Source of the DNA: Promethearchaeota archaeon
Lineage (GTDB): Archaea > Asgardarchaeota > Lokiarchaeia > Sigyniarchaeales > SOKP01
Length of the DNA stretch: 64,000 nt
Assembly (NCBI GenBank): GCA_048938005.1
Contig: JBHLMQ010000005.1
Coordinates: 50,489-114,488 of the forward strand
Direction: 5' to 3'
Both the position numbers and the translations under genes were made by a program. The notes under the pieces were generated by a model. That model made no database searches and was not told the origin of the DNA. It worked only from the letters and a program-made list of their open reading frames with translations. Shown piece after piece: positions 1 through 51,296 of the stretch. The stretch's first letter is position 1. The number at the start of each line of letters is the position of its first letter.

Positions 1-815
1 CCTTCAATATCTGGACGTAATTCTTTTCTTTGAGCAATGCTTTCCTTCTGACGATCAATCATGAAAGCTTTTTCTCCTAATGATTTTTCAATTTTTTCTC
101 TAGTACCTTCAATATCTGGACGTAATTCTTTTCTTTGAGCAATGCTTTCCTTCTGACGATCAATCATGAAAGCTTTTTCTCCAACTGATTTCCCAATTTT
201 ATCTCCAGTGCCTTCAATATCTGGATGTAATTCCCTTCTCTGTTCATTAAGTTCGCGTAGTTTTTTAACTCGAAATGCTTTTTCACCAATTGATTTTTCA
301 ATTTTCTCTCCGGCACCCTCAATGTCAGGATGCATACCAATACGCTGTTCATTAAGTTCACGTGATTTTTCAACCCGAAATGCCTTTTCTCCTATCGATT
401 TCTCAATTTTATCTCCCATACCTTCAATATCTGGACGTAATTCCTTCCTTTGTATATCAAGTTCCCGTAATTTTCCAACTCGAAATGCTTTTTCACCAAT
501 CGATTTTTCAATTTTCTCTCCGGCACCCTCAATATCAGGATGCATACCAATACGTTGTTCATCAAGTTTACGTAATTTTTCAACCCGAAATGCTTTTTCT
601 CCTATCGATTTTTCAATTTTATCTCCAGTACCTTCAATATCTGGATGAATTTCCCTTCTCTCTTCATCAAGTTTTCTCTGTTTTTCTATGCGAAAGGCTT
701 TTTCCCCTACTGATTTTTCTATTTTTTCGGCAGTACCTTCCATATCAGGATGTAATTCTTTTAATTGGATGGTAGTTTCTTTTTGACGATCAATTCTAAA
801 TGCTTTCTCATCAAT
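1..815. repeat. 105-bp coding tandem repeat, about 8 units visible
   Basis: ccttcaatat-like anchor recurs at about 1, 106, 211, 316, 421, 526, 631 and 736; the units at 1-105 and 106-210 are nearly identical. Confidence 0.95.
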
Positions 816-46328: not shown

Positions 46329-46401
46329 AAACTGGCCCACTTCAAAAGAAATATATAGAATAAAATAAAAATGAGGTTTTCTAATTTGGGTTTGAGGGAT
46401 T

Positions 46402-46608
46402 TTACTCCTCTTCTTCTCCCATCAATTCTTCAATCTTTGTCTCAAGAGCCTCAATTTTCTCCTCCAGTGCCTCAATCTTTTTGTTGGTTTCACAGGTAGC
46501 ACATCCATCATCTTCTTCACATTGTGGGAGGGTGTCACAAACTTCTTGAAGTTCATCCATTTCTTCTAATAATTGATCAACTTGATCCTGTAATTCTTCA
46601 ATACTCAC
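46402..46608 (-). CDS. Small acidic coiled-coil protein with central four-Cys cluster
   Basis: Heptad repeats flank C-x5-C-x5-C-x2-C; AGGTGTGA site upstream. Confidence 0.75.
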   Translation of the reverse strand: MSIEELQDQVDQLLEEMDELQEVCDTLPQCEEDDGCATCETNKKIEALEEKIEALETKIEELMGEEEE

Positions 46609-46729
46609 ATTTCACACCTTAAATTTTTATGTTAATAAGGATATGATAATTTATTTTTTTTTGCCTTAAAAATTTAAATTAATAAGGGACTAGTGTTTTA
46701 AATAAGTTTCATAATTATTATTAGAAATA

Positions 46730-47725
46730 ATGGTAGAAAAAAACGAGTTTAAAGAGATTATCAAAAGTCTAACAAATAAGAATAGTTTGAACCGAGCAAT
46801 ATCAATTTCAGATAATTGTGTAAGAATTAATAGGATAGATAAAGAGCTTGGTATAATTGAAGCTGAAATACAAGGAAATAAATTAGTTCCATATAAGCTA
46901 AATTTTAATATATCTCAGAAAAACCTATACGAGGTTATTTATCATGATTGCCCCGATTATTTAGCTCGTAAGAAACTAAACAATAAATTTTGCAAACATA
47001 TTGTAAAATTTTTTTATGTTTTAGGAAATCAGGATTATAAATTTGCAACCTATCTATTAACAGAATTACATTCCAAAATAAAGATAGAAAATCAACAGAA
47101 ACAAATTGATCTGTTTGATATTAATCATTTTGTAAATGCTGAACTTAAAAATCAATTAGATTTTGATTATAAAGGTTTTGATTATTTTTTTGATATTTCT
47201 GAACTAGAAAGTACTGCAAGAAGATGCTTAGAATCTATTTTAATGGAAGCTAAAAAGTTGCCCGCTGCATTAAGGGGATTTCATGGAGGGTATGAAGGAG
47301 GCCTTTTTGACCATATTTTATTGGTGACAAATTATACGTATGAGTTATGTAAAACTATGGATTACGACGTTGATATTAAAAAAGCAGTTTTAACAGCTAT
47401 TTATCATGATTTTGGTAAAATCTCATATTATGCTTTTAAAAGGAAAGATATTCAATCTAAAATTGCATTACCTCGTGAAGAATTAGAAATAATACACGAG
47501 GATATTGTAAGGAAGTTTAACTTTGAGGGAAGAGATTATCACGTTGAAGAAGCATTAGCAGTGCTGAAGAAAAACAAAGATGTTTTGTTTTTTGACGATG
47601 AGATGTCAAAAGCGATAATTTTTCATCATGGTCAGTGGAGTAAGTATTATCCAATAGAAATGAATGAATTGGCAACTCTTATACATAAAGCGGACATGAT
47701 CGCTAGCCAGACTCACTATATATAA
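46730..47725 (+). CDS. SWIM zinc finger plus HD phosphohydrolase fusion
   Basis: HDCPDY...FCKHI (SWIM-like); FHGGYEGGLFDH, YHDFGK, FHHG, KADMIAS (YhaM-like HD). Confidence 0.85.
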   Translation: MVEKNEFKEIIKSLTNKNSLNRAISISDNCVRINRIDKELGIIEAEIQGNKLVPYKLNFNISQKNLYEVIYHDCPDYLARKKLNNKFCKHIVKFFYVLGNQDYKFATYLLTELHSKIKIENQQKQIDLFDINHFVNAELKNQLDFDYKGFDYFFDISELESTARRCLESILMEAKKLPAALRGFHGGYEGGLFDHILLVTNYTYELCKTMDYDVDIKKAVLTAIYHDFGKISYYAFKRKDIQSKIALPREELEIIHEDIVRKFNFEGRDYHVEEALAVLKKNKDVLFFDDEMSKAIIFHHGQWSKYYPIEMNELATLIHKADMIASQTHYI

Positions 47726-47787
47726 TCTAAACATTTTAAATTAAATATAATAAATTAAGAAAGTTGTTATGGTTTTTGTGTCTCTTC

Positions 47788-48447
47788 TCATGATTCTGAT
47801 ATCTCAGAAATTTCTTCCTTTTTGCGGAATTTTTTAACAAGTTTTTTATAACTTTTAACAGATTTTTTAATTAATTCAAGCGTCTCTTTTGGCAAATCTT
47901 CTTCAGGAATTTCAAGATCTTGGGTCATAAAATCACAAGCAATTGTGAGTTTATAATCTTGTTCAAAGGTTCTCTTAGTAAAAGTTCTAATTAATGAAGA
48001 TTTCCCAACAGCAGCAGCTCCGGTAAGTAAAATCTTGAACCTAAATTGATCAGAATCTACAACTTCTCCTAACCTTGGTTTGAAATCTAGTAATGCTGTA
48101 ACAGCTAAACGGTAAAATAATTTTCTAACGTTTTCATTTTCTAATGCAGAGGTTTCTATATATTCAAATAAGTAGTATTGATTTACTTTTTGAATAATTG
48201 TTTCTCTTGGGATTATTTCTCCTAAATCTTCTTTTAAATCTTTCTTATTTCCAACTAAAAAAATAGGAATATTCCCAGAGCGTTCCCTTATCTCATCAAA
48301 ATATTCATCTATCTTATCAAAAGTATCAGGTCGACTTAAATCAAAAACTAAACCTACAGCTGCAACACCTTTAAAAAAATCGGTTTTAAAAAAATCAAAT
48401 CGTTCTTGTCCTCCTGTATCCCATAGCGATAATATAATTTTTAACAT
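47788..48447 (-). CDS. Circularly permuted Rab-like small GTPase (G3-G4-G5-G1-G2)
   Basis: WDTGGQERF, GNKKD and ETSAL precede GAAAVGKSS and LTIACDF. ATG 48447 favoured over the track start 48486, which overlaps the upstream gene. Confidence 0.85.
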   Translation of the reverse strand: MLKIILSLWDTGGQERFDFFKTDFFKGVAAVGLVFDLSRPDTFDKIDEYFDEIRERSGNIPIFLVGNKKDLKEDLGEIIPRETIIQKVNQYYLFEYIETSALENENVRKLFYRLAVTALLDFKPRLGEVVDSDQFRFKILLTGAAAVGKSSLIRTFTKRTFEQDYKLTIACDFMTQDLEIPEEDLPKETLELIKKSVKSYKKLVKKFRKKEEISEISES

Positions 48448-48473
48448 ATTTAGATTCACACTTTTATGAAATC

Positions 48474-49178
48474 TTATGATTCCCAAATAGCAATATATTC
48501 ATCCAAAATTTTATATATGCTATTAAATCCCATGGTTTTATAAAACTCTTTAAGACTCTTTTTATCAAGGTTCCATTTTGATCTCAATTGATAAGGATTA
48601 ATACCATCATTATCTAAAAATAGGAAATCAATAATTTTCAATAAAGGTTTCGGCAAGTATTTACCGAAGAATATCACAATTTTAAAAAGTCTATCACGAG
48701 CAGAGATTTCTTTCGGTTTAATGACATAAGGCTCACAAACAATAATTTTTTGAGAGATTTTTTTAGCTATATTAATTAAATCAACATGTTTGGGATAGAT
48801 ATGATGTAAAATATCACAAATAACAATTACATCCTTTTTTTTTCCTTGATAATCTTGAAAATCAAAAATGTTTTTTTGATACAACGCAATTTTTTTTAAT
48901 TTTATATTTCTTTTTTTCAATTCTTTTCTTCTTATTCGCTTAAGAAATCGGTGATTAAGATCAACACCTTCATATTCTATTGCCGGATGTAAAAAACGCA
49001 TTAAATATCCGGTACCACAAGGCAAGTCTAATACTTCTTTTGGTCCTTTACCTATTAACATAGCAATTGTTAGAAATTTTTTATCTTGATTATATAATCT
49101 TCTTGTAACTGCGTTATAAAGCCATGCACTCCGATACATTAAGCTTCTAAAACCAGTAATTCCTGTTTTTACGACCAT
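48474..49178 (-). CDS. Class I SAM-dependent methyltransferase
   Basis: VLDLPCGTG motif I, GVDLN, DVIVICDILHH. Confidence 0.88.
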   Translation of the reverse strand: MVVKTGITGFRSLMYRSAWLYNAVTRRLYNQDKKFLTIAMLIGKGPKEVLDLPCGTGYLMRFLHPAIEYEGVDLNHRFLKRIRRKELKKRNIKLKKIALYQKNIFDFQDYQGKKKDVIVICDILHHIYPKHVDLINIAKKISQKIIVCEPYVIKPKEISARDRLFKIVIFFGKYLPKPLLKIIDFLFLDNDGINPYQLRSKWNLDKKSLKEFYKTMGFNSIYKILDEYIAIWES

Positions 49179-49244
49179 TGTTAACTAGAGTCCTTTTATT
49201 TGAAAACTTAAAATAAAAATTGAGGAAAAAAAATTTGAAAAATT

Positions 49245-51296
49245 TTAGGGTGGTGAAAGTAAATTCATTTTCTCTTCAATGTTTTTATTTAATTCTTTTA
49301 CTTTTTTATCTAAGGTTTTAAGTTCTTTCTTAATTTCTTCGAATCTACTCTCTTGATCACTCAATTTTTTTACATACCTTTCTTTTAATGAAATTGATTG
49401 ACTATCCTCACCTAAAACAGCGATATTTTCTCTCAGTCGAGACTGTTCATCAGTCATTACATCTCTCTCCTCAATTAATTTTTCTTCTTTAGCTCTTAAA
49501 TCATTCAAAGTTTGTATTAATTCTGCGATTTCTTTGAGTTGATTTTCAAGATCAGATTCAATAAATTTCTTCCTAACGTAAAATCCGACTCTTTTGAGAA
49601 GATCTTCTTTACTATAATTCCATAAATAATTACTTGAGTAATTTTCTCTTTGTTCTTTAAGCTTAAAGACTATAGCATCTTTTGGTTTCAAAGTCAGTTT
49701 GAAACGCCAATAATTAGCAGTTTCTTCAGGTTCAACGGGTTTCTCTATGAATTTATATTCATAAGTCTTTGGATGATCAAGATAAAGCTCCTTTTCTTCA
49801 TCAGTTTTATTTTTAATTTTATATGTTATCATTAAATTAGTGTAATAGTATTCATAAGAATAGCCACTACCAAATGTCACTCTATGTACACTCAAATTTT
49901 CAGATTCTTGTTCATGCGTTATAATAACCGCTTGTTCTACCGCATAATTTAGCAATCTTGTGTCTTCCTTATTCAAGAACGGAATAATCGCTTCACCAGC
50001 AAGATTATCATCATATATGATTGTAACAGGGCCTCTCTCCAGTGTTAAATTTGTATTATTTGTAATTTCAAGACAAGCATTAGGATTTTTATCATGTTCA
50101 TTTTTATTATAGAGTAAAATTCTCTTTGCCTTTATCGATTCGGTAAGTATTGGAACTAGAGCTGATTGTTTTCTCTTAATTGTTACTGGATTTGAAATAT
50201 TATATTCGAACAATTCACCTAAATCTTTAGTTTGAGTTTTAACTTGAGATTTCACTTTGTCATAAATTTCTGTATCTGACATAATAGCACCCCCACGGCC
50301 AATTCCACCGACAGGTGGTGCTCCTGGAGGAGCAAATGATCTAGTACTTGGAGCTTTAGCTCTTCTTTTCATTGCCATTGGTTTTGCGTCCATTTCTGCC
50401 ATTGCATAATCTTTAAATTTCTCCATTTCTAATCCTTCTTCAATTTCAGCAGGACGTGCACTTAATACTTTAGGAGGTTGAATCACTGGTCGCTGAATAA
50501 AAATAGGTCGATAAAATTCATAAATAAAGGAAACAGGCATCCCCGCTACTAAAGATAATTCGATATCTTCCCAATCTTGATTCGTTGTATTTTCTATGAG
50601 ACTCCATCCAGATAGTAAGCATTTTTGTTCTAATGCTTGTTGTTTGCTCATAATCAATCGATAGGATGTTTTCCAGATTGGACTTTCGCGTATATAGGAT
50701 ACGAATATATTTCTATCTATTTCATCATCTCCACCAGATTCACAATTTATTATTATTTTTTTTGCATCTTTCTTCTTTCCAGCAATTACTGTATCTAAAA
50801 AGAATTTCAAATCTTTTTTAATCTCATCATTCATAATTTCTAGAGATTTAATTTCTGAGAACTTATATTTGGTTATCATACCGTTATCTTGATGGAGAGT
50901 TAATAATTTTTCAGTGATCTTTTCTTCTTTTATAAATTTTTCATCATATTCTATTCCCATTATCTTACCTGAAATTTGCTTTGCACCTCCAACTGTTAAT
51001 ATCACATCAGCTCCCTTAATTTGAGTCACAAGAGAAGAGAATGAATCTGTATCTGGAATATTTAGCATTATGGATTTAAGTAATTGGTTAGTTTCTAATG
51101 CAGCATCATAAGATATGGACGAGATATACCCATTTTTACTTGTATCTAAAACAAAAAGTGATTTTAATACATCATTCATCTCATCAATCTTAAATTCAAG
51201 TTCAAATTTACCAGAACCTTTTAAAATGCCTTCGAGGATGTAGTAGGATACACCATGTTTAAATATGATTACTCTTTTTACATTTAATTTTGGCAT
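49245..51296 (-). CDS. DUF4139-type protein with C-terminal coiled coil
   Basis: VIIFKHGVSY, PIWKTSYRL, ENTTNQDWEDIELSLVAG, LFEYNISNPVTI. Confidence 0.8.
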   Translation of the reverse strand: MPKLNVKRVIIFKHGVSYYILEGILKGSGKFELEFKIDEMNDVLKSLFVLDTSKNGYISSISYDAALETNQLLKSIMLNIPDTDSFSSLVTQIKGADVILTVGGAKQISGKIMGIEYDEKFIKEEKITEKLLTLHQDNGMITKYKFSEIKSLEIMNDEIKKDLKFFLDTVIAGKKKDAKKIIINCESGGDDEIDRNIFVSYIRESPIWKTSYRLIMSKQQALEQKCLLSGWSLIENTTNQDWEDIELSLVAGMPVSFIYEFYRPIFIQRPVIQPPKVLSARPAEIEEGLEMEKFKDYAMAEMDAKPMAMKRRAKAPSTRSFAPPGAPPVGGIGRGGAIMSDTEIYDKVKSQVKTQTKDLGELFEYNISNPVTIKRKQSALVPILTESIKAKRILLYNKNEHDKNPNACLEITNNTNLTLERGPVTIIYDDNLAGEAIIPFLNKEDTRLLNYAVEQAVIITHEQESENLSVHRVTFGSGYSYEYYYTNLMITYKIKNKTDEEKELYLDHPKTYEYKFIEKPVEPEETANYWRFKLTLKPKDAIVFKLKEQRENYSSNYLWNYSKEDLLKRVGFYVRKKFIESDLENQLKEIAELIQTLNDLRAKEEKLIEERDVMTDEQSRLRENIAVLGEDSQSISLKERYVKKLSDQESRFEEIKKELKTLDKKVKELNKNIEEKMNLLSPP

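Follow-up and report, generated by a model that had tools for sequence, protein, structure and literature searches.

Elias and Novotny 2008 (PMC2430557) described the motif order G3-G4-G5-G1-G2 among small GTPases for cpRAS, a domain whose chain is broken between strands 2 and 3. According to the accessible part of that paper, cpRAS is eukaryote-specific, belongs to the RAS family, and has TIE as a motif in G2. The domain is preceded by 40-66 residues and belongs to proteins of 840-3933 residues that carry vWA/Sec23-trunk or COG2373/alpha-2-macroglobulin (A2M) regions. The same text refers to Anand and colleagues, according to whom a GTPase permuted to begin with G3 should not fold, and cpRAS is given as the sole counter-example. 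Here we describe a G3-first small GTPase from an archaeon. It is encoded on the minus strand at 47788..48447 of a 64,000-nucleotide stretch of Promethearchaeota archaeon DNA (contig JBHLMQ010000005.1, positions 50,489 to 114,488), hereafter called the window. The open reading frame (ORF) of 219 residues is a complete Ras-superfamily G domain, permuted and cut in the beta2/beta3 hairpin. It is an archaeal variant of a permutation previously known only in eukaryotic cpRAS, and its family is conserved and mostly membrane-anchored. An earlier reading of the DNA made without database searches (the sequence-only reading) had called the G3-first order rare and known from eukaryotic cpRAS, which agrees with the accessible text of Elias and Novotny 2008 (PMC2430557). 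In our literature search on small GTPases of this order, only eukaryotic cpRAS (PMC2430557) was found. The term "permut" is absent from the main texts of bioRxiv 10.1101/2024.02.28.582541, PMC10933270, and PMC11914678, as far as these are accessible; the supplementary table of the first may list these proteins. According to the accessible text of the same preprint, unannotated, taxon-specific groups of Asgard GTPases remain for study.

Other described GTPases are less similar in layout. In the YlqF/RsgA (YRG) class, too, a P-loop GTPase has been circularly permuted in nature and has remained a working GTPase, according to the accessible part of PMC2430557. Its order, in contrast, is G4-G5-G1-G2-G3, with the cut between strand 3 and helix 2, and its members are universal ribosome-assembly factors outside the Ras superfamily. 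The window protein, with G3 first, does not follow this order. Membership in YqeH was considered and rejected, as the single-stretch NCBIfam match scores 23.6 bits against a cut-off of 297.4. Canonical Asgard Rab/Ras-like GTPases (RasL; PDB 7EZB) are the nearest relatives by both sequence and tree. They run in the order G1 to G5 and, by the accessible text of Tran et al. 2024 (PMC10933270), have no membrane-anchoring extension, whereas members of the permuted family carry a helix, a transmembrane (TM) tail, or a larger anchor module (here called D) after beta2. The Arf family, including Asgard ArfR/AArf, provides an analogy only, in that an amphipathic membrane helix lies near the interswitch hairpin (accessible text of PMC11914678 and bioRxiv 10.1101/2024.02.28.582541). 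The Arf helix is N-terminal and the motif order of Arf is canonical, whereas the helix of the window protein is C-terminal and covalently follows beta2, and the sequence affinity of the window protein is to Ras/Rab.

The first ATG of the ORF is at 48447 and the stop codon is at 47788-47790. A longer version (47788..48486, 232 residues) begins at an in-frame TTG and contains 13 extra residues. Since the upstream methyltransferase gene ends at 48474, only 26 nucleotides remain ahead of the ATG. Twenty-one aligned homologues start no more than 1-2 residues apart, the exception being one with a longer gene call. These observations bear out the earlier statement that there is no room for a lost N-terminus. 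The protein matches Pfam Ras (PF00071) with an E-value of 5.8e-35 and 120.7 bits against a cut-off of 21.6, and the match is split in two stretches. The Pfam Arf score is only 30.3 bits, and all library matches of the protein are of GTPase type. When the PDB was searched with phmmer, 818 sequences were matched at E<=0.01, the best being Ypt31, Rab11, and Rab30, and the Thorarchaeota Rab (7ezb_A) was among the matches (E 4.2e-22). In these alignments, residues 135-181 pair with Ypt31 12-58 (beta1, P-loop, alpha1, switch I, and beta2), and residues 5-117 pair with Ypt31 63-173 (beta3 onward). For Rab11 (3bfk_A), residues 134-183 correspond to 5-54 and residues 6-114 to 59-165. The two aligned pieces are complementary and meet at the beta2/beta3 turn. 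A Rab affiliation is suggested by these top sequence matches, with RabF-like motifs judged by eye only.

All five G motifs are present, one copy each, and all features given below are on the minus strand. Segment A (residues 1-122, 48082..48447) spans beta3, switch II, and alpha2 to alpha5, corresponding to Ypt31 63-173 and Rab11 59-165. It contains G3 and the start of switch II, DTGGQ (48406..48420; D10, G13, and Q14 at the catalytic position), followed by G4, NKKD (48238..48249; N67, K68, and D70), and G5, TSAL (48142..48153; S100 and A101). A new, conserved linker of about 15 residues from alpha5 to beta1, LDFKPRLGEVVDSDQF, lies at 48043..48090, and its G127 is invariant in the family. Segment B (residues 136-185, 47893..48042) spans beta1, the P-loop, alpha1, switch I, and beta2, corresponding to Ypt31 12-58 and Rab11 5-54. 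Its G1/P-loop is GAAAVGKS (47998..48021; G143, G148, and K149 invariant), and its G2/switch I threonine is T168 (47944..47946), located within YKLT, of which Y165 and T168 are invariant. The G2 region reads YKLTIACDF in the window protein and YKLTVG.DF in the family consensus. Directly after beta2 comes a C-terminal amphipathic Lys-rich helix, PKETLELIKKSVKSYKKLVKKFRKKEE (47812..47892). The C-terminus, ...KKEEISEISES, has no Cys, and no Rab-type Cys prenylation motif is found on a tail after alpha5. The linear order is G3-G4-G5-G1-G2 rather than the canonical G1-G2-G3-G4-G5 by both the PDB alignments and the motif coordinates. The sequence-only reading had described one ORF with this order and single motifs, and the motif coordinates and the Ypt31 and Rab11 alignments agree with it.

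An AlphaFold2 model was built from a 21-sequence alignment, with a mean predicted local distance difference test score (pLDDT) of 67.9 and a predicted template modelling score (pTM) of 0.67. The model gives the permuted Ras element order followed by a long C-terminal helix. Segment A is predicted to contain strands 2-10 (beta3), 28-35, 62-67, and 95-99 and helices 46-57, 81-90, and 104-120 (alpha5), and segment B strands 134-142 (beta1) and 175-180 (beta2) and helix 146-156 (alpha1). The linker is also modelled as structured, with a short helix (122-125) and a strand (128-131), and the C-terminal helix spans residues 187-217. Residues 1..123 of the model superpose on beta3-alpha5 of RhoA, Rac, Sec4, and Rab11 with Z of 10.1-10.8 and a root-mean-square deviation of about 2.0 Å over 114-123 residues (matched ranges RhoA 50..181 and Rab11 57..177), and Rho and Rab tie structurally at these Z values. 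Foldseek E-values were 4.6e-5 or lower, and most of the top rows had 121-125 aligned columns. Segment B was left out of these superpositions because both aligners follow sequence order. The proposed superposition on Rab was therefore obtained for segment A, which fits Rab11 and Rho, and segment B lies outside the comparison.

An ORF of this kind might instead be a decayed, chimeric, or misassembled fragment of an ordinary tandem GTPase pair with no function of its own. Adjacent canonical GTPase genes do yield the same A-then-B pattern once stop codons are read through. Additionally, one low-depth contig of sequencing run X5 (depth 5.15) has a 1-nucleotide deletion at 48114, explained either by faulty assembly or by a rare variant with a frameshift. 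Against this, contigs assembled in Logan from runs of a second study cross the A-to-B junction (X2 record 4, covering 47500-48194, and X4 record 9, covering 47500-48330). The same single ORF also recurs across genomes. In 5.8 billion proteins, 345 matches at E<=0.001 were obtained with a word-indexed search, and the best 120 of these all have the permuted order, with 73-100% identity and lengths of 197-277 residues. Among named loci, 55 permuted ORFs were found across 56. The genome of the window (3.72 Mb in 101 contigs, 95% complete, 7% contamination) contains 80 matches to the protein, nearly all of them canonical small GTPases. Exactly one is a full-length permuted copy, and the best paralogue in this genome is 45% identical across segment A.

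The sequence-only reading had suggested searching Asgard proteomes for the same order. Such proteins are indeed present in 67 of 400 genomes of the phylum at E<=1e-30, but the family is not Asgard-wide, the members found being confined to one order except for a more divergent one in a single genome of family f16 (G075), whose N-terminus was inspected. Matching genomes are 49/53 in the window's own genus (g1), 5/5 in g2, 1/1 in g3, 2/2 in g7, 1/1 in g10, 4/10 in g11, and 1/42 in g12, and, in the sister family f3, 2/2 in g15 and 1/1 in g21. The g12 match sits on a 4.9-kb contig with g1-type neighbours. No match at this threshold was found in any other family of the 400-genome set. When a 71-residue query across the A-to-B junction was used, stop-free matches over its full span were confined to the same groups plus two long ORFs (683 and 525 residues), and matches in other families covered its canonical N-terminal part alone. 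Relatives are recorded as Promethearchaeota or Promethearchaeia archaeon; examples are Loki_b32, ABR05/06, and two chromosomes, CP070805 and CP070831. We note that metagenome-assembled genomes of one deposit (L049, L062, L064, L075, L078, and L090) are labelled Hod-, Hermod-, Thor-, or Odinarchaeota. These labels look unreliable, since the genomes fall in the genus-level group of the window and have its synteny in common.

The gene is also under purifying selection, a check proposed in the sequence-only reading. The ratio of nonsynonymous to synonymous substitution rates (dN/dS; Nei-Gojobori, 30 orthologues, medians of 435 pairs) is 0.087 for the whole core, 0.075 for segment A, 0.111 for the new linker, 0.092 for segment B, and 0.227 for the tail helix, so that both halves and the linker are strongly constrained. 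The closest orthologue pairs (dS 0.18-0.52) have dN/dS of 0.05-0.20. In 16 diverse members with 40-76% identity to the window protein, D10, G13, Q14, K68, D70, S100, A101, G143, G148, K149, T168, and G127 are invariant, and N67 is kept at 90% or more. D10, G13, and Q14 are invariant in the 21 aligned homologues as well. Tandem doubles are absent among the orthologues examined. The second-study contigs that bridge the junction, the spread across genomes, and the selection on the gene exclude misassembly and decay, and we regard the fragment explanation as hardly credible. The situation that the sequence-only reading had named as fatal to its proposal, tandem-double orthologues beside a unique decayed or misassembled copy, is not what we found: there is no tandem orthologue, the order is present in 67/400 genomes, and the junction is bridged. 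Its proposal of a functional permutant cut at the beta2-beta3 turn is upheld by the alignments, the spread across genomes, the dN/dS values, and the invariant motifs, with the activity itself predicted from sequence.

Trees were built after the two halves had been re-ordered, with canonical and tandem relatives included. The archaeal permuted proteins form a single clade amid canonical Asgard GTPases. All 16 permuted archaeal rows lie on one side of a branch with a FastTree support of 96 (151 rows), and the same clade is recovered by IQ-TREE with a Shimodaira-Hasegawa-like approximate likelihood ratio test (SH-aLRT) support of 99 (83 rows, tandem units left out). The un-permuted tree envisaged by the sequence-only reading thus gave one archaeal clade, in a tree without cpRAS sequences. 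The sister of the clade is weakly supported (62-78), and the rows nearest to it are canonical single-domain proteins, including P0185, annotated as "Rab family GTPase [Candidatus Asgardarchaeia]". In the Protein Atlas, the homologue P0007 gave only clusters of canonical Asgard and eukaryotic small GTPases.

The number of permutation events was examined by adding seven rows of divergent, D-carrying forms. The free tree then needs two changes to the permuted state, although no well-supported branch forces two. In an approximately unbiased (AU) test with 22 permuted and 30 of 66 canonical rows drawn at random (L138 omitted for its long branch; LG+G4), a single clade including six divergent D forms was not rejected (delta lnL 15, p 0.28). 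A poorer, fast constrained tree was rejected in the AU test (p 0.015). Given the AU result and the D fusion that these forms have in common with other members, one permutation event is the economical reading.

The sequence-only reading had attributed the permutation to tandem duplication and trimming. The raw material for this route is plentiful. Tandem canonical GTPase genes are found, for example, at L047:3827-4894 (177 and 170 residues, 21 nucleotides apart). When 1.84 billion proteins were searched by their cluster representatives, the 150 best, annotated with one profile each for segment A, segment B, and the tail, comprised 66 canonical proteins (B then A), 34 two-unit (BABA) and 6 three-unit (BABABA) fused GTPases, and 16 permuted proteins (A then B). 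Because tandem canonical genes and fused multi-GTPase proteins are this common, the route is plausible. No intermediate grouping with the permuted clade was found in the trees with canonical and tandem relatives, and the route is therefore not demonstrated.

Only one permuted entry among the 150 best representatives is eukaryotic, namely P0214, a 243-residue Rab7-like protein that has this order and comes from the transcriptome of the foraminifer Bolivina argentea (EukProt). It falls outside the archaeal clade as a singleton and could be a chimera created by the assembly, or else a permutant that arose separately in eukaryotes.

The archaeal family and cpRAS could in principle descend from one permutation event, either because the GTPase half of CPRas is of Asgard origin or by transfer. 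The two share the same rare order and the same beta2/beta3 break, belong to the Ras superfamily, and keep all G motifs, as far as cpRAS is described in the accessible part of PMC2430557. Of 241 sampled Asgard genomes, 52 encode proteins with a Sec23 trunk, a region also found with cpRAS, and four of these belong to the order of the permuted GTPases. Several observations speak against common descent. As described in the accessible part of PMC2430557, cpRAS belongs to the RAS family, has TIE in G2, lies inside vWA/COG2373 proteins, and is eukaryote-specific, whereas the archaeal domain is Rab-like, with YKLT[IV]G.DF in this region and Rab11/Ypt31 as best matches, and shows neither TIE nor RAS affiliation. 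The archaeal domain is always at the very N-terminus, followed by the helix, the TM tail, or the D module. The large vWA/Sec23-trunk or COG2373/A2M context is not found around it; the window protein has 219 residues, and the long archaeal relatives have no Pfam match to vWA. Twelve longer homologues include no eukaryotic protein. The family is limited to one order bar one genome and is nested among canonical Asgard GTPases. No Sec23-trunk protein was found in the window's genome, and none shares a contig with a permuted GTPase, the Sec23-like genes lying on other contigs. A search with a Thor Sec24-like protein gave only Asgard proteins among the best 120 of 305 matches.

We infer that the permutation arose independently of eukaryotic cpRAS. 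Descent from one event appears improbable, and the bolder idea that the archaeal family is kin to the GTPase half of eukaryotic CPRas slightly more so. It weighs against independence that the conclusion depends on the description of cpRAS (RAS family, TIE) in the accessible part of PMC2430557 and on the narrow archaeal range.

Members of the family have three forms. The first, about 207-243 residues long and including the window protein, is tail-less. The second (about 262-316 residues) has a single C-terminal TM helix. In the third (about 428-755 residues), the G domain is followed by a linker rich in Pro, Lys, and Glu and by the conserved D module of about 200 residues with TM helices. Among the 16 permuted proteins of the 150 best representatives, 13 are full length, and in all 13 the domain starts at residues 1-19. 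A TM tail is present in 12/120 of the closest homologues (the best 120 of 345) and in all copies examined from g2, g3, g7, g10, and g11. The search for longer homologues gave 12 proteins, one of which is a permuted archaeal long form. In most relatives, the permuted G domain forms the N-terminus of a protein with a membrane anchor and lies on the cytoplasmic side. The term stand-alone, used in the sequence-only reading, is suitable for the window copy and for the reduced form in part of one genus, but not for its relatives, which have a TM tail or D.

The D module is found in 48/400 Asgard genomes and in 0/53 of the window's genus; examples (alignment A3) are L042:1531-2163, L043:8658-9275, and L135:1889-2503. 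It has a conserved FPGC..P..LD motif. The model of D (pLDDT 65.3) predicts a beta-sandwich followed by long, probably membrane-spanning helices. Pfam offers no useful family match (best E 0.0097, in 1/7 members only), and neither a PDB sequence match nor a Foldseek match at E<=0.001 was found; weak Foldseek rows are Ig-like, PapD/ASH, or macroglobulin-type beta-sandwiches. In 12/15 D proteins examined, there is no detectable N-terminal GTPase segment. With a diverse-family profile and a D profile, divergent relatives of the layout A-B-linker-D were uncovered in g13 (4/7 genomes), g6 (G159), f2 (G130), and f16 (G075). Segment B of the f2 protein passed a looser profile only, and another g6 genome, G160, has a match to the D profile.

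The relation between these forms was analysed with a tree of 75 permuted ORFs (69 different) rooted at the midpoint. The D forms are basal, the TM forms follow, and the tail-less forms are nested, with at least four changes between TM tail and none. The window protein lies in a subclade that is entirely tail-less. These observations suggest that it is a nested, derived, and most reduced member of the family.

The hydrophobic moment of the tail helix, 0.73 over residues 192-209, exceeds that of any other part of the protein. The helix has a net charge of +7 and a low mean hydrophobicity (-0.43). Such a combination of charge and moment is typical of helices that bind membranes peripherally. The tail-less protein may nevertheless be a soluble cytoplasmic switch, whose helix lies against the G domain, takes part in a coiled coil or a domain-swapped dimer, or binds protein or nucleic acid. 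The hydrophobic residues of the helix are spaced 3-4-3-4 (L190, I193, V197, Y200, V204, and F207), which fits a coiled coil, and the low mean hydrophobicity likewise speaks for a soluble form. Tail-less forms have arisen or been exchanged at least four times, which suggests that the anchor is dispensable. In addition, Asgard proteins expressed in HeLa cells, Thor-Rab included, were not targeted to membranes, according to the accessible text of Tran et al. 2024 (PMC10933270). On the other hand, all relatives at a greater distance have a TM helix or D as their anchor, and the same helix is retained upstream of the TM tail in anchored forms, besides having the charge and moment noted above. We consider a soluble switch possible but doubtful, and favour a protein that would meet the membrane peripherally via its cationic amphipathic helix.

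A further question is whether each member of the family is an active enzyme. In the divergent D-carrying forms (L135-L140, L149, and L151), G3 reads WDPPG[EDK], FDPPS, or LDPPT, which means that the catalytic Gln is gone, and the paralogue L149 has a degenerate P-loop. By their sequences, these divergent D-fused proteins are likely slow or dead enzymes. The window protein might accordingly be a pseudo-GTPase that keeps the fold and serves as a nucleotide-bound, non-cycling scaffold, as these relatives would suggest. Throughout its own subfamily, however, Q14, T168, K149, S150, and NKxD are invariant, and both switch regions are strongly constrained. A pseudo-GTPase is therefore an improbable description of the window protein, if a little less so than common descent with cpRAS.

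Taken together, we think it probable that the ORF encodes a functional permuted Rab/Ras-like GTPase with the switch, anchor history, and independent origin proposed here. The protein would bind and hydrolyse GTP as a conventional switch. The ancestral layout may have been a permuted GTPase followed by a linker and a D module with TM helices. Reduction would have led from the D form first to a protein anchored by its tail and then, within part of the window's genus, to a tail-less form that meets the membrane through its helix. The permutation itself could have arisen when adjacent GTPase genes were fused and both outer parts were lost, separately from eukaryotic cpRAS.

Several observations weigh against parts of this explanation. 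Not every member is an active GTPase, as the catalytic Gln or the P-loop is lost in some divergent relatives. In the free tree, the divergent D-carrying forms stay outside the core clade. The direction from D to TM to tail-less is only as good as the midpoint root from which it was deduced. The tail helix is the least constrained part of the protein (dN/dS 0.23), and what it contacts could be the G domain or a partner rather than lipid. The confidence of the fold model is middling, with switch II (13-21) and switch I (162-170) below a pLDDT of 50. Finally, as the aligners keep sequence order, the superposition covers residues 1..123, and the packing of segment B on a solved GTPase lies outside it.

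Since the anchor is attached to beta2, the strand that comes right behind switch I, the nucleotide state may couple to the anchor. By analogy with Arf, one may speculate further that the permutation is a functional rewiring, in which chain ends placed in the interswitch hairpin put the anchor on the strand after switch I. If this were true, the GTP/GDP state would be passed to a membrane-proximal helix, like the interswitch toggle of Arf, and a third, archaeal mode of coupling small GTPases to membranes would exist beside prenyl tails and N-terminal helices. We regard this as unlikely, somewhat more so than a soluble switch.

Asgard Rab-like GTPases lack prenyl tails, and the accessible text of PMC10933270 treats their mode of membrane contact as an open question. 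In the present family, a Rab-like G domain is attached to a TM helix or a membrane module, and a graded series of forms ends with one that has no tail. The same rare permutation may have happened here a second time, independently, which would bear on where the Ras fold tolerates cuts. The G3-first topology is now available in an archaeal protein of 219 residues that should be easy to express. Since the protein is small and has dozens of orthologues under strong selection, its folding, nucleotide cycle, and switch mechanics are directly testable.

The gene neighbourhood is a matter of local synteny, not of functional pairing. Upstream on the same strand lies a gene for a class-I S-adenosylmethionine (SAM)-dependent methyltransferase (48474..49178; Pfam Methyltransf_12, E 1.9e-9; 26-nucleotide spacer), which is frequent but not constant at this position (41/56 named loci). 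It is preceded by a gene, also on the minus strand, for a DUF4139-like protein of 683 residues with a coiled-coil C-terminus (49245..51296). This protein has no match in Pfam or NCBIfam, and in its nearest Protein Atlas cluster (0.99), PF13598 is found in 13% of members. The DUF4139-like gene lies upstream on the same strand in 43/53 loci with room for it and occurs in 112/154 genomes of the order, including 38/42 in g12, 6/7 in g13, and 5/6 in g5. These three genera have no TM or tail-less GTPase, and g13 has the divergent D forms in 4/7 genomes. Conversely, the DUF4139-like gene was not found with the window query in 13/53 genomes of the window's own genus, and among these, all 7 listed in the match table have the permuted GTPase. 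An obligate partnership with the DUF4139-like gene was rejected, as it is present without the GTPase in other genera, and the GTPase is present where the gene was not found.

Downstream of the GTPase, the 56 named loci contain genes for an HD-domain protein, a small acidic coiled-coil protein, and acyl-CoA dehydrogenases. At the corresponding site in g12, g13, and g5, the DUF4139-like gene, the small coiled-coil gene, and the acyl-CoA dehydrogenase gene follow one another in this order without an insert. Because the site is empty in these genera, the methyltransferase, GTPase, and HD genes can be regarded as a variable insert. In this slot (46400-49200 in the window; also L129, L131, and L132), the three genes are found in differing combinations. 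Scans for tRNA genes and Rfam families and an analysis of composition around the gene gave no tRNA, no Rfam match, and no anomaly. No RNA data set is among the runs listed as containing the sequence. The small coiled-coil protein (46402-46608, minus strand) is very acidic, has 68 residues and a Cys cluster (C..C....C..C), and is conserved beside acyl-CoA dehydrogenase genes in many genera.

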